Position numbers and translations under genes: made by a program. DNA of 64,000 nucleotides, taken from Chrysomallon squamiferum (Eukaryota > Animalia > Mollusca). Below, piece by piece: positions 29,688 through 64,000 of the stretch; the first letter of the stretch is position 1; every line of letters begins with the position of its first letter. The stretch covers positions 28,644,001 to 28,708,000 of the forward strand of contig CM022671.1 of assembly GCA_012295275.1 (NCBI GenBank), given 5' to 3'. The notes beneath the pieces were generated by a model. The model saw only the letters and a program-made list of their open reading frames with translations. It ran no database searches and was not told the DNA's origin.

Positions 29688-29885
29688 GGTGTAGTGGTTC
29701 TCACGTCTGCTTTTACATGACTGTGTGAGAGGATGCCTATTTTTTATTCTTGTTATTTACTGTTTTAATCTTATTTTAATTGTGTACAACTGTTGATTAT
29801 ATCAATAAAGATAAAAAAAAAAAAAAAAAAAAATCACGTCTGCTTTACACGCAGAATGTCGCGAGTTCGAGCCTTGCCGGAACCT
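29688..29885 (+). pseudogene. tRNA-Val(TAC) disrupted by a short Tx1 3'-end insertion
   Basis: 5' part 29688-29717 (start partly deleted); 3' part 29834-29885. Confidence 0.85.
29718..29833 (+). mobile_element. Severely 5'-truncated Tx1-like copy (3'UTR plus poly(A)), 16-bp TSD
   Basis: Similar to 35577-35688 (ttattttaattgtgtacaactg..aataaagat-An); flanked by tcacgtctgcttt(t)aca at 29701-29717 and 29834-29849. Confidence 0.88.
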
Positions 29886-30205
29886 TTAGTTTTGTTAATA
29901 TTTTGTTTGTAGCACTAACGTATTGTACTCTTTCCTGTTTTAAGAGCAGTTGTCAAAATTAAAATCTTGATTTCAGTTTAACAATACTGTTAGTTTTGAG
30001 AATAATAAACTGGTTTTCAAGTAACAATTAACTCTTTTTAAACTATTAAAGATAATGAACTATTATCGGTATACGTTTCCTTTGATATTCTGTGACCCTT
30101 AAAGGTCAGTTATGCACCCCTCTTACGTGTGCGTTCTAGACGGCTGCCTGGTTAAGCTAAAGGTATTTAAGGCTTTCACTGAAACATTAGATGGTTAGTT
30201 TAAGC

Positions 30206-30278
30206 GGTTTCGTGGTGTAGTGATTATCACGTCTGCTTCACACGCAGAAGGTCGCGAGTTCGAGCCTCGCCGGAACCT
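30206..30278 (+). tRNA. tRNA-Val(CAC), full length, directly upstream of the Tx1 element (D-loop GG changed to GA)
   Basis: Full cloverleaf followed by a T9 terminator; one substitution in the A box may impair function. Confidence 0.8.
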
Positions 30279-30399
30279 TGATTTTTTTTTCTTCTAATTT
30301 TTCTATATATTTATTGACTTCCGGTTATGGTGGCGTCGAGTGTGGACGCGTTTCACATCGGCTCTCGCTTCGGAAAGGTTTTGTTGTAAACTAAGTATT

Positions 30400-31564
30400 A
30401 TGTCTTGGGCGGAAGAATCAGAAAATTACGAAGAAAAGATGAAAGATATGAATTTAAAAAAAGAAGGAATGAGAAAAAATGTTTTTAAAAAAGAATGCAC
30501 TGTGATTGTAAATGTAGAAGATAACAAGAAAATTTCAGCAGGCGACATGATAGATTTTGTAAGTGGCCAGGTGGGTGATGTGATAAAAGCGTGCGTACCG
30601 AAAGAATCCGACTCTTATGAAATAACACTAGAAGATATTATACAAGCGAGAATGATTACGGAAATTGATGAAACAGAATTGAAAGGTCTAAAAATAAAGG
30701 CGAGAATTTTGAAATCTGAAACTGTAGTAGTTTCCTTTTTGCACTTGCCTGCCTACATTGAAGATGAAGAAATTGAAGAAAAATTGAAACAAATGGAAAT
30801 AGAAATTTTATCACCAATTTATAGAAGGCTATACAAAGGGACAAAAATTGCAGATGGAACAAGATACGTGAGAGTGAAATTTCCACCCGGAATAAAAAGT
30901 TTACCATACTCAATGAAATTTAGGACTTATGAAGGAATAAAATATTTTCGTGTTTTTACATGACAATCAAATAAAAGTATGTTACAACTGCATGGCGGAT
31001 AATCATTTGTTGAAAGACTGTCCAAATATAAGGTGTCATAACTGTAAACAAAAAGGACATTTTGCTAGAAACTGCCCGAACATATTTCTGTGTGAAAAGT
31101 GTGGAAACAAAGAGGATGAATGTGAGTGTTGGTCAGAGTATGACAGCGATGAACAAAAAAACAGCGACAGTGACAGTGATGGTATGGAATATAATGTAAA
31201 ATCAAAGGAGAAAAAAAAAGAAATTGAAGCAGAAAGTATCCAGAGGATAAATACAACAGAAATGGAAATCAACAAGGAACAACAAAAATCAGAAAATGGA
31301 GAAAAACCAAGAAAATCCCCTGATAAAAACACCAAAGTGAAAATTACTAACAAGGAAGCTGGAACCATCGAAGCAGAAAATAGTAAGCAGAGTAAAACAA
31401 AGCGTCGAACGAGATTGATCAAGCGTCCATCAGAAGAAAAACTGTGGAGCTTGGTAGAAAATAGAAAACAAAAAAAGAGACAAGCAGCACACATGAAAAG
31501 TGTGAGAGAAAGTGTTGCCAGGGTAATGAATGAGTATGGGGGGGAGGATATAGACAAGATATAG
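30400..31564 (+). CDS. Tx1 ORF1 gag-like protein with CCHC zinc knuckles (one frameshift near 30955 in a T run)
   Basis: CYNCMADNHLLKDC and CHNCKQKGHFARNC; DGTRYVRVKFP..SLPYS motif. The copies at 52682-52969 and 61050-61832 read through the frameshift (YFRVLH). Confidence 0.88.
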
Positions 31565-31576
31565 AATATTTTAAAA

Positions 31577-34500
31577 ATGGGTAATAGTTCACTAATTTTT
31601 CTACTTCTAACTATGATCTTGTCTATAAATGTAAACGGACTGAGAGATATTGAGAAATTAAATTCAGTTTTTGCAACATTTAAAAGTAAACATGCAAATA
31701 TTATTTTTCTACAGGAAACATTTTGGGATAATGACTTCATTGAGAGATATAAACATTTATGGGAAGGAAATATATTTTATAATAATTGTCCAAATAAAAA
31801 AAAGGGTGTAGCAATACTGGTATCAAAAGAATGTCCTTATAAGTTTACATTTAATAGTTGCGACACTGAAGGCAGGATTTTAAAAATTAATACGAAAAAT
31901 AGATGAAGAAGAATACAGTTTTATAAATGTATATGCACCAAATAATATTGAAGAAAGAATTTTATTTTTTAAAGGATTATGTAAATTTGTGGATTTAAAA
32001 AATACAATAATGGCAGGAGATTTTAATGACATTTTAGATCCTAATTTAGATTTGGGCATTAATAATAAAACTTTCAATATAAAAAGTAGTAATGAATTAC
32101 AGTCAGTTATTTTTAATTATAATTTAGTTGATATTTGGCGACACAGAAATCCAGATAAAAGGCAATTTACTAGATCTCAAATAGTTGAAAAAAACTATAA
32201 AACAGTAAAGAATTGATTTATTCTTAATTTCTAGAAATTTATTGCAGTTTATAAGTAATGTATACATATCCTATACCTCGGTTAGTGATCACAATTTTTT
32301 ATCACTTAAAATAGATTTTTCTCATGTAGAGAGGTCAAGGTATTTGGATCTTTAATAATGAATTGTTGAAAGATGAAAGTTTTTGTAAAGCTATTATTGA
32401 AGTTATTAATAATGCTTCTGAGTGTCCTTTGTTACAGACTGAACCTAGTGTTTGGTGGGACAACTTAAAATATAAAATGAAAACGTGCAAGAAATTTTGC
32501 AATAAAAAGAAAAAAATCAGATAACGAAAAATATTATAATATACAAAATGCTTTGAAAAGAGAATATGCTAAACTAGCTGTAAATAATCATCATGATTTG
32601 AGTAACATACAAATTTTAGAAGAAAAATTAAAATTAATTGAGAGATCTAAATGTAATGGTGCTATTTTGAGATCTAAAGCTCATTGGAATCTAGATATGG
32701 ATAGAAATACCACATTTTTTCTCAGTTTAGAAAAATCAAAACAAGAATCAAATTCTATTAAAGAGCTAAAAACAGTAAATGGATTAACAAGAAAAACAGA
32801 AGATATATTACAATATGCTTATGACTTTTATTCAAAATTATTTACACAAGAAAATGTAGATATTATTAAACAGGAAGAAATAATAAATTTAATATCAAAT
32901 AAACTAAAAGAATCTGAAAGTGAAAACTGTGAGAAAGACATTACAATTGAAGAATTAACTGAAGCTTTAAAAGAAATGAATAGAAATAAATCACCTGGTC
33001 TGGATGGTCTAACAGTAGAATTTTATGTTAAATTCTGGGAAAATTTTAAAAATTTCTTTCATAAAGTAGTTATGTCAATTCAGAAAAAGAAGAAATGTTG
33101 TCACGCAGTATGAAAAAAGGAGTAATTAGTTTATTTTACAAGAAAAAAGGAGATAAAGCAGACCTAAAAAATTTCAGACCTATCAGCCTTTTAAATGTAG
33201 ATTATAAAATTATTGCTAAAGTTCTTGCAAATCGTCTTAAACAAGTAATGTCAACTATTATTTCATCAGAACAAACCTGTTGTGTAAAAGGAAGAGATAT
33301 TGCTGACAATATTATGTCAGTAAGAGATATTATAGATATTGTCGAGTTAAATAATACAGAAGGGTATATAGTTAAAATAGATCAAGAGAAAGCATTTGAT
33401 AGAGTATCACATAGTTTTATTTTAAAAGTTTTGAAAAAAAATTCAATTTTGGTGATAATTTTATAAAGTGGATTAAAATACTATATAATAATATTAAAAG
33501 TTGTGTAAAAATTAATGGACATTTAACACCTTTTTTTAATATTACAAGAGGGGTTAGACAAGGATGTCCAATATCAATGATGCTTTATGTTATTGTAGCT
33601 GAACCCTTAAATAATTTAATTAAAAAAAGACATAGCATGAATGGAATTAAGATAACAAATGAACTTAATTCTTTATTATTTCAGCATGCAGATGATACTA
33701 CAGTAACTGTCTGTGATGCTCAGTCAGTAGAAAATGTTTTTAATACAATAAATATGTATTGTAGTGCTACAGGGGCAAAAGTCAATGTAGATAAGTCAGA
33801 AGTACTTTATCTTGGTAAAACCATGATTGAAAACTTATCCTTTAACATTCCAATATCAATAAATAAAAACTATGTTAAAATTCTAGGTATATATTTAGGA
33901 CCAAATAAACTATTATGTGAAACTTTGAACTGGAAAAATAAATTAGCTAAAATGTCTAATCTAATTAACTTATGGAGTCAAAGGAAACTTACTTTGCACG
34001 GAAAAGCTGAAGTATGGAATACTTTATTAACATCTAGACTGTGGTATATCATTAGCACAATAAATGTACCAAATTGGGTAGAAAATGAAATTCATAAATT
34101 ATTTTGTAAATTTATGTGGGAAGGGAAAACATCTTTAATAAAATATTCAACAATAATTGGAAATAAAATGTCGGGTGGACTAAATATTCAAGATATTTCA
34201 TTAAAGAAAATGGCTTTTCGAATAAAAATGTTAAAGAAATATTTTGATAATAATTTTAAAAATGTGTGGAAATATACAATGTCAATATTTCTTGAAAAAT
34301 ATATGAATATGAATCTAAATTATGACATTTTTAAAATAGTATACAGTAAAGAAGCTTTAAAAGTTATTAATCCTTTTTATGCTGAAATATTATCAGCTTG
34401 GGACTATGTTAATAATGGAGAACGTAATTTCCCACTTGATACAGATGAAATATTGTCTCAGCCACTTTTTCAAAATCCATTCATTAAATATAAAAACAAA

Positions 34501-35463
34501 TTATTATTATTTAGTTCTTTTATAAAAAGTGGAATAGTCAAAGTGGCTGATATTGCTTATGAAGTAATACCAGGTTTTCTTCCTTTTACAGCTATTGTAG
34601 AAATTATTCATGAAAAATCTCCAGAATTATCCAAAACCAAATTTATATAGCTTACAATGTTATTAAGAAATCACTTCCAGATGAATGGAAAAGTGCTATT
34701 AACAGAAATGCTAAAAAAATTAACTTCTAATAAAGATTTATTTTTTGTTTCAGAATAATGAAATGATAAATGTCAATAAATTTACAGCTAAAATAATTTA
34801 TTCTATTTTAATTTTAAAAAACTTTAAAGCACCAACTTGTGAAGAAAAATGGAATGAGCTTGGTTTTAATATATTCTGGAGACCAGTTTGGAAATGGATA
34901 CACTATAGTGATAAATTTACTGAATTTATAGACTTAGATTTTAGAATAGTTCATCATATAATATATACATATAACAAATTATATAAATATGGCAAAAAAT
35001 CTCATCTAGTGTATGTCCAGTGTGTTTGAAGGCTGATGAAGATTTGTGCCATTTATTTTTGTATTGTGAAGAATTGAAGGAATTAATATCAATCTTTCAT
35101 GAAATATGTATTTATATATTTAAGAAAACAGGGTTTTCTCTAGAACAATTAAAAAGATTATTAATATTTGGATGTTATCTCAAAATTGAAAATAGTACAA
35201 TAGAATTTATTAATATTATTCTTTCAATTTATAGAATAACAGTGTTCAAAAGGCGTGTAATAGCTCAAATGAAAGGAACAAATATCAATATAATACATTT
35301 TTTTAGAAATTATATGTATCAGTGCTTTAAAATCATTCTAAATCAATATCGTATTCAAAACAAACTTTCAATTTTTATTAACAAATATGTTAAGAACAAT
35401 ATTTTCCTAGAACTAAAAGATGACATACTTATTTTCAAATATCCTTTGGAAAGCTACAAATAA
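31577..35463 (+). CDS. Tx1 ORF2: APE endonuclease, reverse transcriptase and C-terminal Cys/His motif (several frameshifts)
   Basis: SINVNG, FLQET, NVYAP, AGDFN, RIDL, SDH; KSPGLDG, RPISLLNVDYK, DQEKAFDRV, RQGCP, HADD; CPVC...EDLCHLFLYC. Confidence 0.92.
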
Positions 35464-35688
35464 TCAATACAGATAAATCATGGAAATGGATAAAAGAATT
35501 AATACTATAAAATACTGTAAATATATATGAATATTCCGAATAAATAAGTATGCATGCATGTGAGTGTGAATGAGTGTGACTGAGTGTGTGAGAGGAAACA
35601 GTTTTTATTATTGTTATTTACAGCTGTAATGTTATTTTAATTGTGTACAACTGGTGATTATACTAATAAAGATAAAAAAAAAAAAAAA

Positions 35689-35740
35689 TCACGTCTGCTT
35701 CACACGCAGAAGGTCGCGAGTTCGAGCCTCGCCGGAACCT
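35689..35740 (+). pseudogene. 3' part of tRNA-Val(CAC) (nt 22-73), in the downstream copy of the target duplication
   Basis: TCACGTCTGCTTCACACG...GGAACCT begins immediately after the poly(A). Confidence 0.9.
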
Positions 35741-36932
35741 TGATTTTTTTTTCTTCTAATTTTTCTATATATTTATTAAGGTTATGCAGATATTATGTTT
35801 TTGACTGCAATTATTAGTGTATTAACAAATAATAAATGGTTTTGAATGAATGAATGAAATAGTTATTTATTTATTTATGATCACCACTACACCAATGAAA
35901 CCGATGAATACGAATACACTGTCATACAAAGAGACAGATTAGACCAAAAAAAAAAAATGAAAAAATAGATACCAAAAAAAATAAAAATAATAATAATAAA
36001 AAAAAATAAAAAAAAAAAAAAATAAAAAGTTCAAGCCTCACCGGAACCTTCACTTCTGTTAATATTTTTTTTAGGTGGTATAATTATGTTTGTAGCACTA
36101 ACTGTTTCCAGTTAATATCAGTTTTAAAACTTCGCAGAATAGATGCGTTTCGCATTTCTATTGCGCATGCGCGCGAAGAGTGACGTCCCTTGACAAACAG
36201 GACTGAAACTAGTCAATTTACAAATTGAGGGGCGTGACAGGCAAGTTGTTATGGGCGACATGAGTAGGAGCCTTTAAACTTTGGCAACTAACATGTACGC
36301 ATAGTGAATTAGATGGTATAATGGCCGTAGAAAACGGCCCGCTGAAATTTACAGCGAAATGGTTCAAATTAAAAAGCGGCGAAACAATTTGAACACAGTA
36401 GGGTTATGACAACGCCAGATTAAAAGACTATTTCGTAAAAAGTACAAACAAAACCATAGGCAGGTGTTCCATACAACTGTTTAAAAGTTTGAAAAGTTAA
36501 AAATATTTCTCGGATGGATATATATATATATATATAATTTGTTTACTGGAAATTTATGCATGCATAAATATTGTATAAATACCCCCCCATGTCAAAATCA
36601 GGGCGCAGGTGTGTGTCTCGGTATAGTGAGTATGTATGCATATCTACATATATACATATACATGTACATGTAATTTTTTTCTGTATGTATGTATAGATAA
36701 GCATAATATTAATAGACATAAATGCTGTTATCCGGCCTGTTATCCTGTTATAAAAATGGAAGCCATGTGCTTATGTACAACTGAAAAACCACATTTCAAA
36801 ACAATGTTTTTTGTTTAATAGATGTTCTATATTCCCTAACAGCTCTCTTTAGTGTTTGTTTATACTGATCCTCTTTGTACTTCAAGTCAGCCTTCAGTAT
36901 GCTTACACCATATTGTTTACATCTTCTTCTTC

Positions 36933-36974
<42 letters not shown>

Positions 36975-38028
36975 TTTGCAAGCAGTGTTAGCTTGTACTG
37001 AATAATTAACTTTCGGAATATTAATTACATAGTAGAGTTGTTGTTCTTTTTTTCGTCTTCTTCTTCTCCTTTATACATTTATACATATATATATATATAT
37101 ATGTGAGATATATTCTCTATGACTGTCCAGTGGTGTCTGGAATATGTTGAGTATGTTGGTGACAAATGGAATTGTACAAATCGCATAGTGTGAATTTACC
37201 TTAAGCAGAAGTATATATAAAACAATAACTAAATAAATATCATGAAAATAAAAGGCATTTTTGAAGTCAGAATTACGTCACTCGCCTTATTAAAACAATA
37301 TATGCATGTAGAGATGATATCAATAGTACTATAAATATTTTTAACATGCGTTGACAATTTTATGAAATTTTTATTATTTATTTTTAATTTTTATTTGTTT
37401 TATTTTTATTTATTATTATTATTATTTTTTTGTTTTGAAAATGAAATTAAAAAAACAAACAAAAAAAATTCATAAAAGCACAGCTTGTGGAGATGCTGAT
37501 GTTATCTCTATCAGTTATTACAGCACACGTTCAATGTTAGAAACAATGTTTGACACATTCCACTCCACTGATGTATATAATATGAATATTTATATCATGC
37601 ACGTCTCTCTGAATATTATTTATTCATTCATTCATTAATTTCGTTTATTTGTTTATCATAATGTTTGTTTATTTATTTATTTTATTTCATTTCATTTCAT
37701 TTTACTTTATTTTATTTTATTTTATTTTATTTCATTTATATTATTTTACTTTATTTTATTAATTTCTCATACTGTGAACATATCTGCATGGGGTGCATTA
37801 ACAATATTTGTGCATTAATATGTTTCCAGTAAACAAATTATATATATATCCATCCGAGAAATATTTATAAATTTTCTACAACATATCTATACTTCCAACA
37901 GCACATATCTTTTAAATATTTTATTACCTTCAAAAACATAACAGATTAAGATAAAAACTGTTTCTTCTTTAATTATATTTGAGAAAAAAAAAAAAAAAAG
38001 AAGTAACAAAATGAAAATGGGGATTAAT

Positions 38029-39172
38029 TCAAAGTGGTTCCCAGCCACAGACGGAAGAACAAGGTGTGCCGTCTCCACCAATACATTTTCCCAGTCTGCA
38101 GTTGAAGTTGGTGTAGCAGTGCTGACCCTTTTTGACGGTCAAGCCACACACGTAGCAGATACACGACTCAGCAAGACACTGGAAGTGATCAGAACATGGC
38201 TCCCCGTCCTCCTTTCTGAAATCACACGTACTAAGTAACCCGTGCTTCCAGCAGTAGCCCTCTGTGCCAAAAACAACGTAGCGTTAAAACAGTACTTGTG
38301 TGGTCATTATGTCTACGGTCACGTGATGAAAACTGTTATCACGTGACGGTAACAGAAGATTGCATGACTAGCTAGATTGCAAAAGAAAATATGATTACGT
38401 GATTAACTAGATTACAAAATAAAATATGATTAATCATATTACAAAATAAACTATGATTAACTAGATTACAAAAAACCCCTTTGATTAACCAGATTACAAA
38501 TTATGATAATATGACTAGTCAAGATTATAAAATAAACTTCTATGATTACATGATTAACCACATTACAAAAGAAACTATTATTAATTACATTACAGAAAAA
38601 ATAATAATTACATGATTAACGAAATTACTAAAGAATCTATGATTACATGATTAACTTGAATACAAAAGAAACTTTGATTACATAATAAAGTAGATTGAAA
38701 CGAAACTGATTTCACGATTAATCGAACTGAAAAAGAGACCACAGTCAAATACGTATCTAAGTGACAACACAGACCATCAAAGTGACGAGAGATTCTATAA
38801 TTAGTGTAAGTCAGTTAACACGTGTCACTGTGTTAAACAGTGATACCACGACGAGGAATTCATGGAAATGTATATGCATATGTTTACTATCGAATTGTGA
38901 GGTTTTGTGAAGATTTGCATTAACCATAACAAATCAACAAATAAACAACAGCAGCAGCACCAGCAGCAACAACAACAACAACAATAATAATAGTAACTGC
39001 AACAACAATAATGAAATCGTAACAATAATGGCAACAATAGTAATAACAGTAGTAATAAATGTTTCTCACTGTTTCCACAGTCAGAGTGCTTTTTACAAGG
39101 GATCCCAAAACCCACAGCTTGCTGAACAGTCAACATAAGGAGAGTCACAGTTGTATAAAACATTTTCATCAT
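38029..39172 (-). CDS. Small secreted cysteine-rich protein, 111 aa, 14 Cys; coding exons 39070-39172 and 38029-38261
   Basis: A phase-1 GT-AG intron joins MMKMFYTTVTLLMLTVQQAVGFGIPCKKHSDCGN to KGYCWKHGLLSTCDFRKEDGEPCSDHFQCLAESCICYVCGLTVKKGQHCYTNFNCRLGKCIGGDGTPCSSVCGWEPL*. An acceptor at 39175-39177 and a donor near 39362 suggest a 5'UTR exon. Confidence 0.8.
38360..38730. repeat. Degenerate ~30-40 bp tandem repeat (gattaactagattacaaaa..tat) in the Cys-rich gene intron
   Basis: Visible recurrence of gattac/gattaa units. Confidence 0.7.
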
Positions 39173-39200
39173 GTCTGAAAAAAACATAAAATAATAATAA

Positions 39201-39337
<137 letters not shown>

Positions 39338-41177
39338 TGCCATTTTAAATGCAGTTAATTACCTGACATGCAGAAATATTACATATAGCATAAATATATC
39401 TACAAGCACAAATAAAACAAGAATGCAAATACTCGTTGTCGTTATTGTTGAACAATCTTCACACACAATACGCGCACACACACACACACACAGAGATATA
39501 AACACAAATACATACACAAAAATAATCTAAAAATGACTGTCAACGTACACAGATGTGTGACACCTCGATATCCCAGCTGATGTGATGTTTTCTGATTTAC
39601 GAAAATGCATTCTAAATTATAGCAACCAATAACACTGCAGCTTCTAAACATACACATATGGATTATGATAATATCAACAAAAACAATAATGAAAGGGGCG
39701 AAGTAGTGTCTATAAAATTATCAAAACTTTATAATGTAACATTGTAATTTTAATAATATGAAATATTTAACGTATTCACTGTTTTAATACTAAATATACA
39801 TACATACATACATATATACATACAAATATACATACATACATATATACATGCATATATACATACATATGTACACAGATAGGGAAATATAATATATTATTCG
39901 ACTGTACAGACATACAAATACATTATATGAATTTGACTGAAGTTTAGTGCATATTAATTTTAGTAATAATAATAATCATAAGTGCATGTGGTTTTTCAGT
40001 TAATATTAACTTGACTACAAAAACAACTGTAAAATATCGATATTAAAATGGATATAAAAAAGTGGTTGTAACAACCATGCGCTATTCGTAGCATTTGAAA
40101 TACAAACTGGGTCCGGAATGCGTTAAAATCCTTCTGTTAAACACAATAAATAAACGTTTGTCTGTTATCTATAATGTCCATATACTGCTATTACTAGGTA
40201 CTGCCTTTAATACATAGTGTTATTACTAGATACTAGTATAACTATAGTCCACTATTACTACATATTGCAAGTACTATATACCGCTATTAATATAGACTAT
40301 TATTACTACATACTACCATTACTACATATTGCAAGTACTATATACCGCTATTAATATACGTACTCCTAAAACTGTACTCTACATACTGCTATTCGTACGT
40401 ATTATTATTACCACTATAACTAAATACTAATATAACTATGTATTGCTAATACTGAATTCTACATACTGCTATTAATACGTATTATTAATACTACATACTA
40501 GTATAACTACAATCTACTATAACTACATACCACAATAACTACATTCTACATACTGCTATTGATACGTATTATTATTACTACATACTCCTTCAACTACATA
40601 CTACTGTTATTATATACTGCTAATACTACATTCTACATATTACTAATACTACATTCTACATACTACTAATACTACATTCTACATATTACTATCAATACGT
40701 AATAGTATTACTACATACTCCTACAACTACATACTACTGTTATTATATACTGCTAATACTACATTCTACATACTACTATTAATACGTATTATTATTACTA
40801 CATACTCCTATTACTACATACTACTATTATTACATACTACTAATGCTACATTCTACATATTACTGTTAATACGTATTATCGACATACTACATACTACTCT
40901 TATTATATACTGTTACAATTACATACTATCGTAACTACCTCCTGCTAAAACTACATTCTATATACTGCTATTAATACGTATAGCAAGTACTGCTGTTACT
41001 ACATAATACTTCTACTACATTATATTCTTTTGCATTTTGGCTGGATCTAGAAAGTATCTAGAATTTTGTCTCATAGAGACAAGAAAGAAAACCCGCTAAA
41101 GAAAAATAAGATAAATAATGTCAGAATAAAAAATAAAATCATAATTTTTTTTGTTAATAACACTTTTATTTTCTCAT

Positions 41178-41212
<35 letters not shown>

Positions 41213-41608
41213 TTTGTTATTATCTTCATCTTCCTTTTTTTTTTTTTTTTTTTTTTTTGCTCTCTTTGCCCTCCTAAGAGTTGAGTCGTTCGGCTGCATC
41301 CTTTGTACTGCATTCGGTTAAGACGACCTTAGACTTGAATCATTATAATACAAATATTTTCCTTTTTTTAAATCTTTTTTGTTTTGTTTTACGAGCTAGC
41401 ACACACAGTCTTCTAAGATGAACTATGGATGTAATTACCTGAACAAACACAGTAATAATAATGATAATGAACTTTGACGTGATTCAAACTAAACTTTGAT
41501 TATCTTTCAGCTTGCTTTTTCCGGGCCAGAACATTCGACTCGGTTCAGAATTCACTTCTGTTCGTGTCGCGCCTTTCGTAACCTGAGATAGTGAAACAGA
41601 CAAGCGTA

Positions 41609-42749: not shown

Positions 42750-42834
<85 letters not shown>

Positions 42835-43164
42835 TATTCTTTGTTGTATATTTAGGTATCTTTTAATATCCATCTATCCATCCATCCATCCATTTATCTC
42901 TCTTTTAGTGTTGTCTCACTGTCTGTCCATCTGTTTGCGCGTGAGTATGTGCGTGTGTGTGTGTGTGTTTGTGTGTATGCATGAGTATCATAATCCGATG
43001 TTGTTAATATGTTGACTGAAATTCAGTTGTTTCCAGGTGTTTCTGGCTGACGTCAATTCAGAAAAAGGCGAAGAGACAGTAAAAGCTTTCACAGAGAAAT
43101 ATGGCGCAGAGAAAGCCAAATTTGACGTCACAAATAAAGAACAATTTACAGGTAATTCAAAGTT

Positions 43165-43224
<60 letters not shown>

Positions 43225-45021: not shown

Positions 45022-45057
<36 letters not shown>

Positions 45058-46075: not shown

Positions 46076-46145
46076 AAAAAGTCTTAAAAGACTGTGTTAC
46101 AAAACAACTTTCGTAATAATATATTCAAACTTTAATATTAAATGA

Positions 46146-47800: not shown

Positions 47801-47802
47801 GC

Positions 47803-49749: not shown

Positions 49750-49769
49750 TTACGTATTTATGTAAATTT

Positions 49770-52700: not shown

Positions 52701-53253
52701 ATCACTGTCACTGTCGCTGTTTTTTTTTGTTCATCGCTGTCATACTCTGACCAACAATCGCATTCATCCTCTTTGTTTCCACACTTTTCACACAGAAATA
52801 TGTTCGGGCAGTTTCTAGCAAAATGTCCTTTTTGTTTACAGTTATGACACCTTATATTTGGACAGTCTTTCAACAAATGATTATCCGCCATGCAGTTGTA
52901 ACATACTTTTATTTGATTGTCATGTAAAACACGAAAATATTTTATTCCTTCATAAGTCCTAAATTTCATTGAGTATGGTAAACTTTTATTTCGGGTGGAA
53001 ATTTCACTCTCGTATCTTGTTCCATCTGCAATTTTGTCCCTTTGTATAGCCTTCTATAAATTGGTGATAAAATTTCTATTTCCATTTGTTTCAATTTTTC
53101 TTCAATTTCTTCATCTTCAATGTAGGCGAGCAAGTGCAAAAAAGGAAACTACTACAGTTTCAGATTTCAAAATTCTCGCCTTTATTTTTTAGACCTTTCA
53201 ATTCTGTTTCATCAATTTCCGTAATCATTCTCGCTTGTATAATATCTTCTAGT
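49770..53253 (-). mobile_element. Tx1-like copy (part of ORF1 to mid ORF2), 5' end fused to tRNA-Val(CAC) nt 65; 3' end lost in the gap
   Basis: Reverse complement of ~30627-34110 with many indels; junction cctcgc|actagaag. Confidence 0.92.
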
Positions 53254-53318
53254 GCGAGGCTCGAACTCGCGACCTTCTGCGTGTGAAGCAGACGTGATAA
53301 CCACTACACCACGAAACC
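53254..53318 (-). pseudogene. tRNA-Val(CAC) lacking the 3' acceptor strand
   Basis: nt 1-65 are present, then Tx1 ORF1 sequence. Confidence 0.88.
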
Positions 53319-53639
53319 GCTTTAAAATAACCATCTAATGTTTCAGTGAAAGCCTTAAATACCTTTAGCTTAACCAGGCAGCCGTCTAGGACGCACACGT
53401 AAGAGGGGTGCATTACTGGCCTTTAAGGGTCACAGAATATCAAAGGAAACGTATACCGATAATAGTTCATTATCTTTAATAGTTTAAAAAGAGTTAATTG
53501 TTACTTGAAAACCAGTTTATTATTCTCAAAACTAACAGTATTGTTAAACTGAAATCAAGATTTTAATTTTGACAACTGCTCTTAAAACAGGAAAGAGTAC
53601 AATACGTTAGTGCTACAAACAAAATATTAACAAAACTAA

Positions 53640-53824
53640 AGGTTCCGGCAAGGCTCGAACTCGCGACATTCTGCGTGTAAAGCAGACGTGATTTTTTTTT
53701 ATCTTTATTGATATAATCAACAGTTGTACACAATTAAAATAAGATTAAAACAGTAAATAACAAGAATAAAAAATAGGCATCCTCTCACACAGTCATGTAA
53801 AGCAGACGTGAGAACCACTACACC
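53640..53824 (-). pseudogene. tRNA-Val(TAC) with a short Tx1 insertion (53692-53795); counterpart of 29688-29885
   Basis: Perfect 16-bp TSD tgtaaagcagacgtga at 53676-53691 and 53796-53811. Confidence 0.88.
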
Positions 53825-53877
53825 TACATATAAATATGTGTAAAATGTAGATCTATGACGACAACATTGTTTTTTTC

Positions 53878-53956
<79 letters not shown>

Positions 53957-54307
53957 AAATATTAGACTGGAAACATTGCTGTATTTTATACAAACCTAGA
54001 TGTTATATCTCTCTTCATTCGTACGAACAAGACTCGATGTTGACTACAGAATCAAATATCTTCATTTAAAAACACTATTAGTTTATAATATCCAATGGCA
54101 ATGTAGTAAGCTATCATTAATTTACCAATTTTATGATTTTAATTATATGATATATCACATAATAACATGCAAATGAAATAATTAAATAAAGTTTCAATTT
54201 ATTTCATAAAATTCACTTTTCAATGACGTGTCAAATCAATAAATATTAGTTTATAAACCATTAAAAAATATTCTGTGTCATGCAGTTATTGTACGTTTTT
54301 ATTTATC

Positions 54308-54380
54308 GGTTTCGTGGTGTAGTGGTTATCACGTCTGCTTAACACACAGAAGGTCGCGAGTTCGAGCCTCGCCGAAACCT
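54308..54380 (+). tRNA. tRNA-Val(AAC) with one anticodon-stem mismatch (ACAGA)
   Basis: Full cloverleaf; counterpart of 28962-29034. Confidence 0.82.
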
Positions 54381-56564
54381 TCATTCATTCTTTCTTGTTG
54401 TTTTTTATTATTATTATTATTTCTTTTTTGAGTGAGAGAGAGACAAATAGAAAATCAGAAAAAAACACCACCCACTCACATCAAGATGGATTTATCCATA
54501 ATACAGAAACTTTTATTTCAATATGATTAAAATTCGATAAAACGATATTGGTTTTGTTTTTTGGGGGATTTTTTGTTTCTTTGTTGTTTTATGCTATATA
54601 CAATTAGTTATCGCAAAAATAAAATTAAAGAAATCTAGTAATTTATTTATTTATTTACTTAATCATTTATTTCAAGCTGATGTGCTTATCTTTCATAACA
54701 GAAGGAAAGAAAAAAGAAATACCTACCTGACAAAAATAATGTCAACGTAGTGAAATATATACATTATCTGCTTTTATTAAATAAATTAATAATAATTGAA
54801 AGCCTAATAAAATTTATATACCTTATTGATAAAATTTATACAACTTCTAGATAACATTTATATACCTACCTTATAGATAAAATTTCTGTACCTTCTAAAT
54901 AAAAGTTTTATACTTATACATATAATTTATATAGATTCTAGATAAAAGTTATATACCTTCTAGGTAAAATTTCTATACTTACCTTATTGATAAAATTTAT
55001 ACAACTTCTAGATAACATTTATATATTTACCTTATAGATAAAATTTATATACCTTCTAAATAAAAGTTATATACCTTACAGATAAAATTTCTGTACCTTC
55101 TAAATAAAAGTTTTATACTTATACATATAATTTATATAGATTCTAGATAAAAGTTATATACCTTCTAGGTAAAATTTCTATACTTACCTTATTGATAAAA
55201 TTTATACAACTTCTAGATAACATTTATATACTTACCTTATAGATAAAATTTATATACCTTCTAAATAAAAGTTATATACCTTACACATAAAATTTCTATA
55301 CCTTCTAAATAAAAGTTTTATACTTATACATATACTTTATATAGATTCCAGATAAATGATATATACCTTCTAGGTAAAATTTCTATACAGTATTTGTATG
55401 TGAGTGTGCACGTGTGCTTGAAAGTTTTCAATTATTTAGACAGAGTTATAAATAGCTTATCGACCTTTGACCTGCAACATGGTGTCAGCCAGATCCGCTT
55501 GTCAGATGATGAACTCGCGACCTTCTGCGTGTAAAGCTGATTATGACCACTACACCGCGAAACCTACCACTACACCACGAAACCTACATATAAACATGTG
55601 TAAAATGTAGATCTATGAAGAAAAATAAATCAAGCAGTTTAATGATGAATTTTTTATTGTTTTTATTTTTTTTAAATTTGATTTAAAAAAAAAAAAAAAA
55701 TGGTTTGGTCTAATCTCTCTCTCTCTGTATGACTGTTTATTCGTGTTCATCTGTTTCACTGGTTTAGTGGTGATCACGTTTGCTTCAAACATTTGTAATT
55801 TAATAATTAAATATCCTTAATTAATTTTCTTAATTATAATGTATGATTTTATGAATAAAGATTTTATTTAAAAAAAAAAAAAAAAAAATGCATATTCTGC
55901 GATTTCCGGCCTCGCGGAAACGTTCAATTATTCGTTTCTTTATCAGATTAAATTGTCTCAAAAACGGATCCCTGTAAAACATTCTACAAAATAGATTCGT
56001 ATGATAACATAAATAAATCTACTAAACTGTATTCTTTCTACTTTGAAAATAACCGCTCAAAGGTCTTCATGACATATTTTGTTACAGTGTTTTTGTTCTA
56101 ATGAGAAATCTTGTTACAGCTATGACTAAAACAACCTATGTGATTTGTGACCAGTAAGCTTATGCTTGTTTAGAATCATGAAATCTACTGACAAGTTTAG
56201 TTCTACACAGAATTATCCAACGTCTTCGTGGATTTTATCTTCTAATGAGACGTTTGTTTACAGTCTTCTCCATTTCACGCCCTTGTACGTGCTTACGACT
56301 GTGAAATTTGCTCAGGCACATTTAACTTTGATTTCACGACTCTGTGGTAATTTCAACACAATTTTTGTGTGTAATCATAAACAAAACACAAAGAAAGAAC
56401 GTTAATGTAAGATCAGTGATTTATTATTTTTAAAGTTGAAACATAAATAAATAAATATTTCATTTATTCATTCATCCAATTATTATTTGTTAATACAAAA
56501 AAAAAAAAAAATCAAGGTTCCGGCGAGGCTCGAACTCGCGACCTTCTGCGTGTGAAATCAGACG

Positions 56565-58765
56565 GTTTTTTTTTTTTTTTTCAGATTTAAGTAACATTAT
56601 TTTGAAAATATTATTTTATTGTTTATCATTGAATTGCACACTAACAGAAAATTTAGATGTGGAGACACTCACATATACTCATATCATCTTAAATATTGCA
56701 ATCCCTTTAATACCTAGAATATTGTATCCAGCATAAATATATATTTTCATTTGCAATTGCTTTGTTTGTTTGATGTGTTTTTTTCTGTTATGAATATTAC
56801 AAATATGAGTCTTTGAATTAAAAGAACTTCAGATAGAAAAAAAAATCCTAATTTTTTTTTAGCGATTTCTGCAAATTTTGTTGAGTGAACATTTTATATA
56901 AATTATAATAATCCTAACATACAATTTAAACTGAGCCGATTAACAACAATATTTTAATGTTAAATATATTGCAAAGAATATCGAGTACAAAGTAAATTTA
57001 TTAATAAATGTGACAGGCAGGTGTCCTTGTCATCAGTTTACTCTTGTTTTTTGTTTTTTCAAAAACTGTTTTTAACAATTTGTGTCAAAGAACAGAATAT
57101 TTCATGCCATCACTATTTTTATTAATACATTTCAGTCTCAACACACTGACCATTCATGATTACAAATTAGAGCCCTGTTTTTAGTACTGAGAACATACCA
57201 GTTTAATCATTAAGAAAACTAAATTTAGTAAATAAAAATCTGGTTAGTTGTTAGTAAAAGTCTTGGCAACGCAGTTTGTTGTCTACTATCATTCTTTTTG
57301 AAATATATAACATTTAAGATCTACCTGTTTCTGATAGCAGCCATTTTTTAAAAAGAAATAAAAACACTGTTATAGGTGATATGTTAATATCCATGCCTCA
57401 TCACCTCAATTTGTATCACTGATGGCAGCCCTATCTGATAAACAGTAGTTAGAAATTAAGTTTCACACATTACTTTTAGTGCAATGTAATAATTGTTCCT
57501 GGATAACATTAGGTAGAAAAACTACTGGACATTTAACAAAACCTAACACTTATTATTAATTGCTCTTTCTTTCTACTTAAACTTAGGGTATTTTAATATA
57601 TATATACATTTCACACAAAAAAATTAAAAATTTAATGTTTTCTGTATTAAAAGGTTACCTCTTGATTAACCATGTATTTTAACACCATTAAATAACAAGT
57701 TATTTTACCTAGAGTACTGTAACACAACAGACTTAATCCAATTTGACATTATTTTACTAATAAACATACAAGATTTTTGAGAACTTGAATATTTTAATCT
57801 TTTACATTATTTTTATTATTTTTATTAAACCAACTGGGGATTTGTTCTAGTTATATACAAGTTAAGACAATCACACTTCCATGTATTATAGTTACTGCTT
57901 TCATTTTTTTTTTTTTTTACAACAGACATATACTTCAGCCTCCAACAATTCTACTACACAACAATGTTAACATTTTTTTTTTTTCGATTTCACATCGACT
58001 TATCTTTTACTATATTCCTTTTGTTTGTTTTTTTCTTTTTTTCATTTTTATTTTTTCTTTTTTTTTCTTGTTAAAAAACACACTGGAATATACACATGCA
58101 CACATTTTACATTTCTTCTTTTGTTTTTTCCTTTGAACCGAGAAGAGATTTCTCTTTTTCAATCCATTTATCCATATCCTCTAAGGGTTTGTAGTAAATA
58201 TGAACCACTTGTGCTCCTGCACCCATAGTCAACAATGCAGCTGCCAAAAATCTGAAATAACCTGGAGGCAAGCGTCCTACCACCATTTTTGATACAGAAC
58301 ACTAATTATATCCAAACACTATGTGAAATCCACCGAAATGTCTATGTTAGTATGTATTGTTTATTATAACACGTTATCACTAAAAGGTCTCAGCAGAAAA
58401 AGAATGTACATCAAAATGTTGATTTTATGATATCACAGTTTATTTTTAGATGTTGCTGAAGTTTCCAGACTCTGCATAGCAATTTTATGTGCTTGTTTTT
58501 CCTTGTATACTGAATAAAAGTTAATCTGTCCTACTCTCCAATTTACCATTGAAAACTCAACTGCAGCTCCCAAAACAAAAAAAATCGGAAGAAATCTATA
58601 CATTCCAAACGTTTTTTTCCCAGGCCATGCCTGCATAATGCGTTGAATTGTTCTACTAAAAAAGAATCTACTAATCATGATTTTATTTTAGGACATGTGC
58701 TCACTTTCTTGTCTCATTTCACCTTTCAGTTGCTGACATTTTGTAACTTGCCCATGCGCAGAGTC
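56565..58765 (-). other. Processed mRNA retrocopy (5'UTR, SMIM4/UQCC5-like ORF, ~1.85-kb 3'UTR, poly(A))
   Basis: T16 at 56566-56581; AATAAA on the minus strand at 56615-56620; TSD at 56551-56564 and 58766-58779; absent from the homologous locus at 26898. Confidence 0.88.
58433..58678 (-). CDS. SMIM4: SMIM4/UQCC5-like small mitochondrial membrane protein, intronless intact ORF, 81 aa
   Basis: RIMQAWPGKKTFGMYRFLPIFFVLGAAVEFSMVNWRVGQINFYSVYK matches the remembered family pattern PGK..FG.YRFLP.FFVLG...E..M...RVG...FY.VY. Confidence 0.85.
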   Translation of the reverse strand: MISRFFFSRTIQRIMQAWPGKKTFGMYRFLPIFFVLGAAVEFSMVNWRVGQINFYSVYKEKQAHKIAMQSLETSATSKNKL

Positions 58766-59319
58766 TGTGAAATCAGACGTGATAACCACTACACCACGAA
58801 ACCGCTTTGAATAACCCTCTAATGTTTCATTGAGAGCTTTGTATACGTTTAGCTTAACCAGACAGCCGTCTAGGACGCACACGTGCATTACTGACCTTTA
58901 AAAGAAACGTACATCGGAAATAGTTCATTGTTCTTAATAGTTTAAAAAGAGTTAATTGTTAATTCAAAACAAGTTTATTATTTTCAACACTAACAGTAGC
59001 CACAAATTAATTGAAGAAATAGAACAAGAAAGAAATACAAGATTTTGGCGAGGCTCGAAAACGCGACCATAACACTTTTAACAGTATCATGAATACGGTA
59101 CAACAACTCATTTTAAAATAGTTTATGAACTAATATTTAGTAACTTGACATGCTTTAAAAAGTGATTTTTATGAAATAAGATATTATGAAACAATATTTA
59201 ATTTACATGTTATTGAATGATGTCATTTAATTCGTTAGGAATTTAAATAATAAAATTAATAAATGAATTGACGAAACCTTACTTTATTGACATTGGATAC
59301 TATAAATTAATACGTTATC

Positions 59320-59392
59320 GGTTTCGTGGTGTAGTGGTTATCACGTCTGCTTAACACGCAGAAGGTCGCGAGTTCGAGCCTCGCCGAAACCT
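59320..59392 (+). tRNA. tRNA-Val(AAC)
   Basis: Full cloverleaf with T-run terminator. Confidence 0.92.
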
Positions 59393-59898
59393 TGATTTTT
59401 TTTTCTTTCTTGTTCTTTTTCTATTATTTTTCGATTAAACGATATTGGTTTTGTTTTTCGGGGGATATATTTTTTCTTTGTTGTTTTGTGCTATATACAA
59501 TTAGTTATCGCAAAAATAAAATTAAAGAAATCTAGTAATTTATTTATTTATTTCAAACTTATATGCTTATCTTTCATAACAGAAGTAAAGAAAAAAAAAA
59601 CCTACCTAGAAAAAGATTGGCAGCCGTCTAGGACGCACACTTAAGAGGGGTGCATTACCGACCTTCAAGGGTCTCAGTACTGTACAACCACAAACATATT
59701 AAAAGAAACGTATACCGGTAATAGTTCGTTGTCCTTAATAGTTTAAAAAGAGTTAATTGTTATTTGAAAACCAGTTTATTATTTTCAAAACTATCAGTAT
59801 TGTTAAACTGAAATCAAGACTTTTATTTTGACAACTGCTCTTAAAACTGGAAAGAGTACAATACGTTAGTGCTACAAACAAAATATTAACAAAACTAA

Positions 59899-59971
59899 AG
59901 GTTCCGGCGAGGCTCGAACTCGCGACCTTCTGCGTGTAAAGCAGACGTGATAACCACTACACCACGAAACC
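59899..59971 (-). tRNA. tRNA-Val(TAC)
   Basis: Full cloverleaf on the minus strand. Confidence 0.92.
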
Positions 59972-60032
59972 TACATATAAACGTGTGTAAAATGTAGATC
60001 TATGACGACAACATTTTTTTTAATCAATCAAT

Positions 60033-60166
<134 letters not shown>

Positions 60167-60456
60167 GTCTTCATTCGTTCGAACAAGACTCGATGTTGAC
60201 TACATAATTAAATATCATCATTTAAAAATACTATTAGTTTATAATATCCAATGGCAATGCAGTAAGCTATCATTAATTTATGAATTTTATGATTTTAATT
60301 ATATCACATAATAACATGCAAATGAAATAGTTAACTAAAGTTTCAATTTATTTCATAAAATTCACTTTTTAATGACGTGTCAAATTAATAAATATTAGTT
60401 TATAAACCATTAAAAAATATGCTGTGTCATGCAGTTACTGTACGTTTATAGTTATC

Positions 60457-60529
60457 GGTTTCGTGGTGTAGTGGTTATCACGTCTGCTTAACACGCAGAA
60501 TGTCGCGAGTTCGAGCCTCGCCGAAACCT
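60457..60529 (+). tRNA. tRNA-Val(AAC), variable-loop G>T variant
   Basis: Full cloverleaf with T-run terminator. Confidence 0.88.
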
Positions 60530-61077
60530 TGTTTTTTTTTTTTCTTTCTTGTTCTTTTTCTATTATTTTTCGATTAAAATTCGATTAAACGATATTGGTT
60601 TTTTTTTTTGTCTTTGTTGTTTTATGCTATATACAATTAGTTATCGCAAAAATAAAATTAAAGAAATCTAGTAATTTATTTATTTATTTACTTAATCATT
60701 TATTTCAAGCTGATGTGCTTATCTTTCATAACAGAAGGAAAGAAAAAAGAAATACCTACCTGACAAAAATAATGTCAGCGTACTGAAATATATACATTAT
60801 CTGCTTTTATTAAATAAATTAATAATAATTGAAAGCCTAATAAAATTTATATACCTTATTGATAAAATTTATACAACTTCTAGATAACATTTATATACTT
60901 ACCTTATAGATAAAATTTCTATACCTTCTAAATAAAAGTTATATACCTTACACATAAAATTTCTATACCTTCTAAATAAAAGTTTTATACTTATATATAT
61001 AATTTATATAGATTCAAGACAAATGTTATATACCTTCTAGGTAAAATTTCTATACAGTATTTGTATGTGAGTGTGCA

Positions 61078-61830
61078 CATTCATCGTCTTTGTTTCCACA
61101 CTTTTCACACAGAAATACGTTCGGGCAGTTTCTAGCAAAATGTCCTTTTTGTTTACAGTTATGACACCTTATATTTGGACAGTCTTTCAACAAATGATTA
61201 TCCGCCATACAGTTGTAACAGACTTTTATTTGATTGCCATGTAAAACTCGAAAATATTTTATTCCTTCGTAAGTCCGAAATTTCATTGAGTATGGTAGAC
61301 TTTTTATTCCGGGTGGAAATTTCACTCTCACATATCTTGTTCCATCTGCAATTTTTGTCCCTTTGTATAGTCTTCTATAAATTGGTGATAGAATTTCTAT
61401 TTTCATTTCTTTCAATTTTTCTTCAATTTCTTCATCTTCAATCTTCGCCTTTATTTTTAGACCTTTCAATTCTGTTTCATCAATTTCCGTAATCATTCTC
61501 GCTTGTATAATATCTTCTAGTGTTATTTCATAAGAGTCGGATTCTTTCGGTACGCACGCTTTTATCACATCACCCACCTGGCCACTTACAAAATCTATCA
61601 TGTCGCCTGCTGAAATTTTCTTGTTATCTTCAACATTTACAATCACGGTGCATTCTTTTTTAAAAACATTTTTTTTCATTACTTCTTTTTTTAAATTTAT
61701 ATCTTTGATCTTTTCCTCGTAATTTTCAGATTCTTCCGCCCAAGACATAACACTTAGTTTACAACAAAACCTTTCCGAAGCGAGAGCCGATGTGAAACGC
61801 GTCCACACTCGACGCCACCTTAACCGGAAC
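61078..61830 (-). mobile_element. 5' portion of a more diverged Tx1-like copy (5'UTR plus most of ORF1), 3' part deleted
   Basis: Starts GTTCCGGTTAAGGTGGCG; ORF1 has an in-frame deletion (KAK|IEDE) and both CCHC knuckles; joined at ~61078 to tRNA-array spacer sequence. Confidence 0.9.
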
Positions 61831-61920
61831 ATTTATTTGTTAATACGATAATAACTGCAGTCAAAAACATACTACTTGCATAACCTTAATAAATATATAT
61901 GTAAAAAAAAAGAAAAATCA

Positions 61921-61972
61921 AGGTTCCGGCGAGGCTCGAACTCACGACCTTCTGCGTGTGAAGCAGACGTGA
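61921..61972 (-). pseudogene. 3' part of tRNA-Val(CAC) (nt 22-73) after a Tx1 poly(A)
   Basis: On the minus strand: An-TCACGTCTGCTTCACACG...GGAACCT. Confidence 0.9.
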
Positions 61973-63591
61973 TTTTTTTTTTTTTTATCTTTATTAGTAT
62001 AATCACCAGTTGTACACAATTAAAATAACATTACAGCTGTAAATAACAATAACAAAAACTATTTCCTCTCACACACTCAGTCACACTCATTCACACTCAC
62101 ATGCATGCATACTTATTTATTTGGAATATTCATATATATTTACAATATTTTATAGTATTAATTCTTTTATCCATTTCCATGATTTATCTATATTGATTAT
62201 TTGTAGCTTTCCAAAGGATATTTGAAAATAAGTATGTCATCTTTTAGTTCTAGGAAAATATTGTTCTTAACATATTTGTTAATAAAAATTGAAAGTTTGT
62301 TTTGAATACGATATTGATTTAGAATGATTTTAAAGCACTGATACATATAATTTCTAAAAAAATGTATTATATTGATATTTGTTCCTTTCATTTGAGCTAT
62401 TACACGCCTTTTGAACACTGTTATTCTATAAATTGAAAGAATAATATTAATAAATTCTATTGTACTATTTTCAATTTTGAGGTAACATCCAAATATTAAT
62501 AATCTTTTTAATTGTTCTAGAGAAAACCCTGTTTTCTTAAATATATAAATACATATTTCATGAAAGATTGATATTAATTCCTTCAATTCTTCACAATACA
62601 AAAATAAATGGCACAAATCTTCATCATCCTTCAAACACACTGGACATACACTAGATGAGATTTTGCCATATTTATATAATTTGTTATATGTATATATTAT
62701 ATGATGAACTATTCTAAAATCTAAGTCTATAAATTCAGTAAATTTATCACTATAGTGTATCCATTTCCAAACTGGTCTCCAGAATATATTAAAACCAAGC
62801 TCATTCCATTTTTCTTCACAAGTTGGTGCTTTAAAGTTTTTAAAATTAAAATAGAATAAATTATTTTAACTGTAAATTTACTGACATTTATCATTTCATT
62901 ATTCTGAAACAAAAATAAATCTTTATTAGAAGTTAATTTTTTAGCATTTCTGTTAATAGAACTTTTCCATTCATCTGGAAGTGATTTCTTAATAACATTG
63001 TAAGCTATATAAATTTGGTTTTTGGATAATTCTGGAGATTTTTCATGAATAATTTCTACAATAGCTGTAAAAGGAAGAAAACCTGGTATTACTTCATAAG
63101 CAATATCAGCCACTTTGACTATTCCACTTTTTATAAAAGAACTAAATAATAATAATTTGTTTTTATATTTGATGAATGGATTTTGAAAAAGTGGCTGAGA
63201 CAATATTTCATCTGTATCAAGTGGGAAATTACGTTCTCCATTATTAACATAGTCCCAAGCTGATAACATTTCAGCATAAAAGGGATTGATAACTTTTAAA
63301 GCTTCTTTACTGTATACTATTTTAAAAATGTCATAATTTAGATTCATATTCATATATTTTTCAAGAAATATTGACATTGTATATTTCCACACATTTTTAA
63401 AATTATTATCAAAATATTTCTTTAACATTTTTATTCGAAAAGCCATTTTCTTTAATGAAATATCTTGAATATTTAGTCCACCCGACATTTTATTTCCAAT
63501 TATTGTTGAATATTTTATTAAAGATGTTTTCCCTTCCCACATAAATTTACAAAATAATTTATGAATTTCATTTTCTACCCAATTTGGTACA
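61973..63591 (-). mobile_element. 5'-truncated Tx1-like copy (1.6 kb) with target-site deletion
   Basis: Reverse complement of ~34065-35688 with T14 at 61973-61986; its 5' end joins the tRNA upstream flank (gaaacattagatggttag) and tRNA nt 1-21 are missing. Confidence 0.92.
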
Positions 63592-64000
63592 CTAACCATC
63601 TAATGTTTCAGTGAAAGCCTTAAATACCTTTAGCTTAACCAGGCAGCCGTCTAGAACGCACACGTAAGAGGGGTGCATTACTGGCCTTTAAGGGTCACAG
63701 TTTTGTATAACCATGAATATATAAAAAAAAACATATATATCGGTAATTGTTCATTGTTCATAATAGTTAAAGAGAGTAAATCGTTAGTTCTAAACCAGTT
63801 TATTATTTTCAACAATAACAGTATTGTTAAACTGAAATCAAGATTGGTTATGTTTGCACCTTAAAGCCTTATGCTAGTTATGGTGCTGTTAAAATTAATA
63901 TATCAGTTTTCAAGTTTTGTGCTTTCTTATTTCATTTTTTTTATTTATTTACCGTTTTGATTTTGATTTTAATTTAATTTGTTTAATTAATTAATTTATT

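Follow-up and report, generated by a model that had tools for sequence, protein, structure and literature searches.

A tRNA-Val array and its inserted element

The window analysed here, 64,000 nucleotides (nt) of the forward strand of contig CM022671.1 of Chrysomallon squamiferum (positions 28,644,001 to 28,708,000; assembly GCA_012295275.1), holds an array of valine transfer RNA (tRNA-Val) genes and, within it, copies of a poly(A)-tailed retrotransposon that encodes an apurinic/apyrimidinic-type endonuclease (APE) and a reverse transcriptase (RT). The window is AT-rich (30.5% G+C) and contains two 200-N gaps. ARAGORN found tRNA genes for Val only, nine of them intact, and no 5S rRNA was found within the window. 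The array lies in two mirror halves, about 97-99% identical to each other and divided by unrelated DNA and an assembly gap, which may be haplotypes or an inverted duplication. The array and the element copies are as follows.

25731..61973, no strand assigned: tRNA-Val array in two mirror halves, nine intact genes plus split and broken ones (ARAGORN)
30316..35688, plus strand: copy A, full-length element, 5.4 kb (open reading frames, Pfam)
30226..30315, plus strand: left copy of a 90-bp target duplication, tRNA nt 21-73 plus 37 bp of flank (exact match to 35688-35777)
35688..35777, plus strand: right copy of the 90-bp duplication, the 3' part of the target tRNA-Val(CAC) (exact match)
29718..29833, plus strand: copy B, 5'-truncated 3' end, 0.12 kb, in a tRNA-Val(TAC) gene (blastn)
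53692..53795, minus strand: copy B', mirror of B, not independent (mirror comparison)
61973..63591, minus strand: copy C, 5'-truncated, 1.6 kb, 98.8% like A, in another tRNA-Val(CAC) unit (blastn)
61076..61829, minus strand: copy D, 5' end and part of open reading frame 1 (blastn)
49763..53253, minus strand: copy A', mirror of A, running into an assembly gap (mirror comparison)

The poly(A) of the element adjoins TCACGTCTGC, which is tRNA-Val from nt 22 onward, at 35688/35689, 29833/29834, 53692/53691 and 61973/61972; an earlier, sequence-only reading of this DNA had placed the junction at tRNA-Val nt 22, and its coordinates proved exact. The poly(A) runs without a break into the invariant A21, so the junction is either 20/21 or 21/22. 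All four matches in the window to the terminal AATAAAGAT-poly(A) of the element run into tRNA-Val nt 22, and three of them are independent. When copy A was compared with the window by blastn, element DNA was confined to 29718-35688 and 49763-63591, all within the tRNA-Val array, so that the claim that no copy lies outside the array held within the window.

Copies A, B and C differ in repeat unit, and B is in a TAC gene. The 90-bp repeat of copy A is identical to its own right flank and unlike the remaining array units; its left copy completes an intact tRNA-Val(CAC) gene at 30206-30278 (ARAGORN), and because the duplication extends 37 bp beyond the tRNA, a complete gene is rebuilt upstream of the element. 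Copy B is ~85% like A and has a 16-bp duplication corresponding to tRNA nt 22-37. Copy C is joined at its left end ~8 bp upstream of the tRNA start, with ~29 bp of target missing, and its upstream flank is ~83% like that of A while its downstream flank is of the type found at 26898. These flanks belong to a different unit from that of A, and thus the three insertions are independent. Neither the 90-bp duplication nor a 2.2-kb mRNA-like insert at 56566-58765, discussed below, had been recognized earlier.

The region is duplicated in mirror image and interrupted by gaps, and A' and B' are duplicates of this kind; one could therefore suppose that a single ancestral insertion was multiplied by duplication or mis-assembly of the array and that no targeting took place. 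However, A, B and C differ in length, left junction, unit and anticodon, an unrelated insert occupies the same site, and relatives in other hosts keep the register; these junctions across hosts already contradict the explanation, which we consider very unlikely. The chance that two further insertions would fall at one base of ~16 tRNA units is ~1.6e-8, a crude figure calculated for uniform insertion. The APE-RT element lies in the same tRNA-Val register through at least three independent insertions, the number of events that had been claimed.

A' and B' were considered as independent insertions and rejected as mirrors of A and B. Over 3523 aligned columns copies A' and A show 38 mismatches, and over 620 columns their flanks show 6 (element and flank each scored as 97% alike). 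At the junction of A', tRNA nt 65 meets element nt 312 with one base in common, so this copy is probably a deletion derivative. Copy D begins 91 nt downstream of the end of the tRNA interrupted by copy C and lacks its 3' part, owing to a deletion with short shared ends. Thus, among the five copies cited in the sequence-only reading, three stand as independent, while the copy at 53253 is the mirror of A, and the copy at 61830, described there as starting at a tRNA-Val gene, in fact has its start 91 nt beyond the end of that tRNA and is missing its 3' end. Had copy D entered at nt 21/22, its duplication would have been ~144 bp, with C later striking the rebuilt gene; this order is possible and would fit the layout of C and D.

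In public sequence data, a single contig (run X5, record 16) spans the element's 3' untranslated region (UTR), the poly(A) and the 3' part of tRNA-Val, and element depth is far above flank depth, a difference that is not readable as copy number. Run X10 gave no contig matching here, and the pieces from run X12 are too short to bear on the junctions.

Copy A carries two open reading frames (ORFs). ORF1 (~30400-31564) is gag-like with CCHC knuckles (zf-CCHC, E 3.4e-09; no second Pfam family at E 0.001) and resembles ORF1 of three of the related loci described below, L005-L007. ORF2 (~31577-35463) encodes the APE endonuclease, the RT and a C-terminal zinc motif (Pfam Exo_endo_phos, RVT_1 and zf-RVT) and is followed by the 3' UTR and poly(A). 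Both ORFs of copy A are frameshifted in the assembly; contigs from four public runs carry indels near the frame breaks, so the frameshifts are either assembly errors or peculiar to copy A. The element is covered by RNA-library contigs of run X7, which had no silent control and is not read as expression.

Copy A' keeps an unbroken endonuclease stretch (51102-52232) with catalytic motifs; the motifs retained are YAPN, GDFN, SRID and SDH. This endonuclease aligns best to the LTX chimera (PDB 2v0r), with the hairpin loop ungapped, whereas that of L1 is two residues shorter; we take LTX to carry the Tx1L hairpin loop, a type of loop that bears on target choice. With P0002, a protein 71% identical to copy A, as query, the best solved relative was human L1 ORF2p (E 5e-88, versus 2e-15 for R2), and comparison with the ESM Atlas returned generic endonuclease clusters only. 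An ORF2 with APE, RT and zinc motif, the poly(A), the 5' truncations and the target duplications and deletions are all as in the L1 group, and the CCHC ORF1 and the long LTX-like endonuclease loop are of the Tx1 type, a CCHC-knuckle ORF1 rather than an L1-type ORF1 being a feature of the Tx1 clade. On these sequence features the element likely belongs to the Tx1 clade.

Relatives and the tRNA register

Relatives were drawn from metagenome contigs, where 80 of 296 related loci were kept from the 41 of 64 collection parts covered, and from genome contigs, which gave a further 39 loci; the trees omit L086 and L108. Named ORF2 relatives come from limpet, mussel and sea cucumbers, and three distant RT matches in a viral collection served only as outgroup. 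Most members of the element's clade are known as proteins only, without flanking DNA; they include members from Patella and Mytilus (P0133, P0020), and naturally intact endonuclease domains are found in P0002 and L002, among others.

Four of the 80 metagenome loci (L001-L004) fall in this clade, and in each of them an end of the element abuts a tRNA fragment. In L002 the AATAAAGAT-poly(A) meets nt 22 of a tRNA-Tyr that contains an intron, and the element starts after nt 36-38 of a tRNA-Lys, and the joining of a Lys 5' part to a Tyr 3' part suggests several target types for one family. The 3' end of L003 is at nt 22 of tRNA-Thr(AGT), and L001 and L004 start after 5' parts of tRNAs, presumably Gln and Ser. 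The closest relative with flanks is L084 (70% ORF2 identity), host DNA binned as a bacterial genome: within a tandem array of tRNA-Asp genes its 3' end falls at nt 21/22, and nt 11-20 are deleted at its left. L084 has one copy, and L085 and L086 are without 3' ends. A pattern search of five host-contaminated metagenome-assembled genomes returned the L084 junction only. The contigs of L084-L110, binned as bacterial, contain animal retrotransposons and the tRNA-Asp array, which is host contamination.

For a control outside the clade, we inspected by eye the 23 loci in which both a 3' end and its flank could be seen. A tRNA start was seen only in L002 and L003, and a 5S start in L006 and L011; the control is crude, given that a T-loop regular expression missed the known case of L003. 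In a tree of 41 rows and 882 columns, the five tRNA-flanked rows all fall in one clade (bootstrap 96, SH-like approximate likelihood ratio test 98) that is sister (98/97) to a clade holding the 5S-inserted L005 and L006, to which the element has 37-38% ORF2 identity; the 5S-inserted L010 and L011 are placed further out. The endonuclease loop has the same length in the tRNA-flanked relatives as in A'. As a separate observation, L005, L006, L010, L011 and L057 make up two separate clades that adjoin 5S rRNA at nearly the same place, one of them with a longer endonuclease loop.

The 3' junction is therefore constant at A21 in Val(CAC), Val(TAC), Asp, Tyr and Thr genes, with the element always in the orientation of the tRNA, and left junctions vary: after nt 37 in copy B and in the 2.2-kb insert (nt 36-38 in the Lys case), 90 bp downstream in A, and with a target deletion in C and L084. 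Because relatives share it across different tRNA types, the conserved feature is the position within the tRNA gene, and a given family probably favors one tRNA type or a small number of them.

The sequence-only reading had proposed a sequence-specific APE family cutting in the A-box region of tRNA-Val. An APE-RT element of L1/Tx1 type with a register 3' of the A box agrees with this, while specificity for Val is not shown, since the window holds only Val genes. A strictly tRNA-Val-specific family, with each relative confined to its own single tRNA type, nonetheless has to be considered. Every junction in the window is in a Val gene, the X5 contig (record 16) links 3' UTR, poly(A) and a Val 3' part, and the single L084 copy lies in Asp. 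On the other hand, the window offers only Val genes as targets, and L002, with its Lys 5' part and Tyr 3' part, suggests more than one type. We consider strict specificity possible, if somewhat doubtful.

A probable polyadenylated passenger at the insertion site

Another insert in the array is unrelated to the element.

56566..58765, minus strand: poly(A)-tailed insert, 2.2 kb, splitting a tRNA-Val(CAC) gene (window comparison)
26898..26970, plus strand: intact tRNA-Val(CAC), the empty mirror of the insert site (ARAGORN; flanks 99.2% alike on the left and 97.3% on the right)
58433..58678, minus strand: intact 81-amino-acid ORF, like SMIM4/UQCC5/Sloth1 (Pfam UPF0640, E 3.4e-32)
58107..58286, minus strand: intact 59-amino-acid ORF, like Brawnin/C12orf73/Sloth2 (Pfam DUF4516, E 4.4e-12)

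The insert ends with AATAAA and 16 A residues. Its left junction lies after nt 37, as in copy B, its right junction at nt 22-25, and the target is duplicated. A blastn comparison with the window gave no similarity to the element and no tRNA-like sequence in the insert. It was considered as a second family of long interspersed nuclear elements and rejected, being without RT or element similarity.

We take UPF0640 to be the SMIM4 family and DUF4516 the Brawnin family. The two ORFs (58107-58678) lie ~150 nt apart on one apparent transcript, together with short upstream ORFs, and a search with the SMIM4-like protein returned three matches, none of them a close named one. Their order is that of fly sloth1-sloth2, and according to excerpts of PMC9681215 the Drosophila pair is expressed from a single bicistronic mRNA, an arrangement described there in choanoflagellate, sea squirt and lamprey as well. 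The bicistronic sloth1-sloth2 layout would thereby extend to Chrysomallon squamiferum. The insert has the features of a processed retrocopy, namely a poly(A) with its signal, a target duplication and an empty homologous site, and is likely, from its sequence, a processed copy of the host bicistronic mRNA. The simplest reading is that the ORF2 protein of the element copied the host SMIM4-Brawnin mRNA in trans, which we consider likely.

Two contigs of run X8 (records 21 and 22) show an A-run and the 3' part of tRNA-Val after 12 and 155 non-element letters, and are possible further passengers at the tRNA site.

The presumed passenger bears on how the target is found. Read-through transcripts with tRNA ends might anneal to tRNA genes, the 90-bp repeat of copy A then coming from a donor copy; near-full-length A and D both start downstream of a whole tRNA, and co-transcription with the target can strengthen targeting, as described in part of PMC4494074. 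However, the repeat of A equals its own right flank and differs from other units, the flank of D has a different length, and the host-mRNA insert is at the site yet has no tRNA-like sequence by blastn against the window. Because of this last point, guidance by RNA homology is unlikely. If the host mRNA was copied by virtue of its poly(A) alone, the protein, and not RNA homology, would select the target.

Target selection and known systems

We are confident, if short of certain, that this is a poly(A)-tailed APE-RT retrotransposon that inserts at nt 21/22 of tRNA genes, its endonuclease likely nicking immediately past the 3' side of the A box. By the usual course of target-primed reverse transcription, the template strand would be nicked at the T/A step that faces nt 20-21, and the freed T would pair with the poly(A) of the RNA to prime reverse transcription. 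The second-strand cut would usually fall after nt 37 (a 16-17 bp stagger) and sometimes far downstream or upstream. A long duplication would regenerate an intact gene, open to another hit, as with C upstream of D. If only poly(A) were needed, the host SMIM4-Brawnin mRNA could be copied into the same site.

Several points weigh against this account. The three independent element insertions are the only ones seen, and they come from a window picked for holding them; Kojima's rule for target specificity asks for more than 20% of flanks of one type genome-wide, and the flanks counted here are those of the window. Public contigs break within the poly(A) and yield no junction census, and some contig ends beyond 35688-35691 are non-tRNA (agreement of only 0.59-0.67, 80% likeness). 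The right junction of the mRNA-like insert reads poly(A)-CCGTCTG, so it lies either at the site minus two bases or 3 nt off. Among the relatives, Rfam matches to the tRNA fragments are partial and below the gathering score, and no tRNA was seen in the 5' flanks of L003 and L085. Support for the tRNA-flanked clade is 85 on RT alone and 91 in a quick mixture-model tree in which L084, when added, falls beside copy A. Finally, the APE/RT tree, proposed earlier as one that would include Tx1 families, has no named Tx1 sequence among its rows, and the grouping is with unnamed 5S-inserted elements.

Across tRNA types the bases 3' of the cut vary, whereas A21 and the GG of the A box are shared. The position could therefore be set by the enzyme, reading the A-box side, or by a factor of RNA polymerase III (Pol III) that places the enzyme. 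In the latter case a weakly specific endonuclease would be tethered by the host, through TFIIIC bound to the A box or through the open complex of Pol III, as for Dictyostelium TRE elements. It is in accord with this that the register stays constant while post-cut bases differ (TCACG, GTATC, GAGCG), and that the Val- and Asp-inserted families have almost the same hairpin loop. However, this type of loop also occurs in the sister clade inserted in 5S, the tRNA genes hit by copy B and by the retrocopy are mutated, and factor-tethered elements, as described in excerpts of PMC3706591, land away from the gene rather than at one internal base. We regard tethering as unlikely and, because tethered elements insert at a distance, favor direct reading of the DNA by the protein with fair confidence. 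The Val and Asp families, with 70% ORF2 identity, near-identical loops and different post-cut bases, make a test pair for DNA reading versus Pol III tethering. Few targets of site-specific APE retrotransposons have been described, and the way in which their endonucleases shift from one target to another is still a question.

The papers searched contained no report of an APE or Tx1 family that lies within tRNA genes, nor of an mRNA retrocopy located there. Kojima and Fujiwara reportedly described in 2004 a Tx1-clade element of zebrafish, Mutsu, in 5S rRNA genes; Dewa of zebrafish is of the Tx1 clade, and NeSL-related elements carry a restriction-like endonuclease. The comparisons that follow draw on excerpts of the sources cited. 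Target-specific Tx1 families include Tx1L (in Tx1D), Keno (U2), Kibi, Koshi and Tx1-Mar (PMC4494074), Mutsu (5S rRNA genes) and Dewa (tRNA-Leu spacer) are target-specific (PMC3706591), and Repbase lists 14 L1-Tx1 families for the Pacific oyster (PMC10294476).

Like our element, Mutsu is of the APE type and occupies one fixed base within a multicopy RNA gene transcribed by Pol III (PMC3706591, PMC10946416), but that gene is 5S rather than tRNA, our element is in a separate clade, and the window is without 5S. L005 and L006 can be likened to Mutsu by target only, without a named sequence; they belong to the sister clade and share the ORF1 type. Dewa is likewise target-specific in tRNA arrays, but it lies in the spacer of the tRNA-Leu array, whereas the 3' junctions here are inside tRNA genes. 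Keno, Tx1L and Tx1-Mar also have precise 3' junctions, and Tx1-Mar has a poly(A) passenger, SINEU, trans-mobilised to the shared target (PMC4494074, PMC4640811); their targets are different, and the passenger here is a copy of a protein-coding mRNA and not a short interspersed nuclear element.

Two other groups share the tRNA habit. NeSL-1_TV (tRNA-Pro), LIN15_SM (tRNA-Arg) and LIN25_SM (tRNA-Glu) are non-long-terminal-repeat elements specific for tRNA genes (PMC4640811), but such NeSL-related elements are early-branching, and given the APE domain of our element the habit arose separately. Dada-tV and other Dada elements occupy a fixed site inside tRNA genes, including tRNA-Val and sometimes several types; they are, however, DDE DNA transposons with 6-7 bp duplications, and Dada-tV is in the anticodon arm (PMC8869645, PMC3706591).

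Tentatively, and with a little less than even confidence, we propose that the element represents an undescribed, old invertebrate lineage, sister to 5S-targeting elements, that keeps the A21 register, switches tRNA type (Val, Asp, Tyr, Thr, Lys, Gln, Ser), rebuilds the genes it hits and delivers poly(A) mRNAs. The mRNA copy at the site suggests that the enzyme brings any poly(A) RNA to a conserved multicopy target, and such delivery bears on the origin of retrogenes and on tools for RNA-templated gene insertion. If true, this would amount to site-specific gene writing in nature, with arrays of tRNA genes serving as landing pads.

Further features of the window were recorded. Two nested mirror duplications flank the 200-N gaps (9195-25514 versus 39318-48478, and 25725-35832 versus 49763-63845) and could be two haplotypes that were scaffolded head to head. 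Pieces resembling exons of a short-chain dehydrogenase gene, with weak Pfam adh_short matches, recur at ~11400-21100 and in the mirror at ~43000-47000. Just downstream of copy A there are two decayed tRNA-Val fragments, at 35878-35903 (minus strand) and ~36028-36050 (plus strand), one of them after an A-rich run. Finally, a broken tRNA-Val at 27952-28025 (plus strand), with its mirror at 55511-55585 (minus strand), has its first 19-20 nt tandemly repeated and nt 20-29 scrambled; the break, beside the insertion site, may be a repair scar, and the letters of the gene at 27952-28025 are found in a contig of public run X8 as well.

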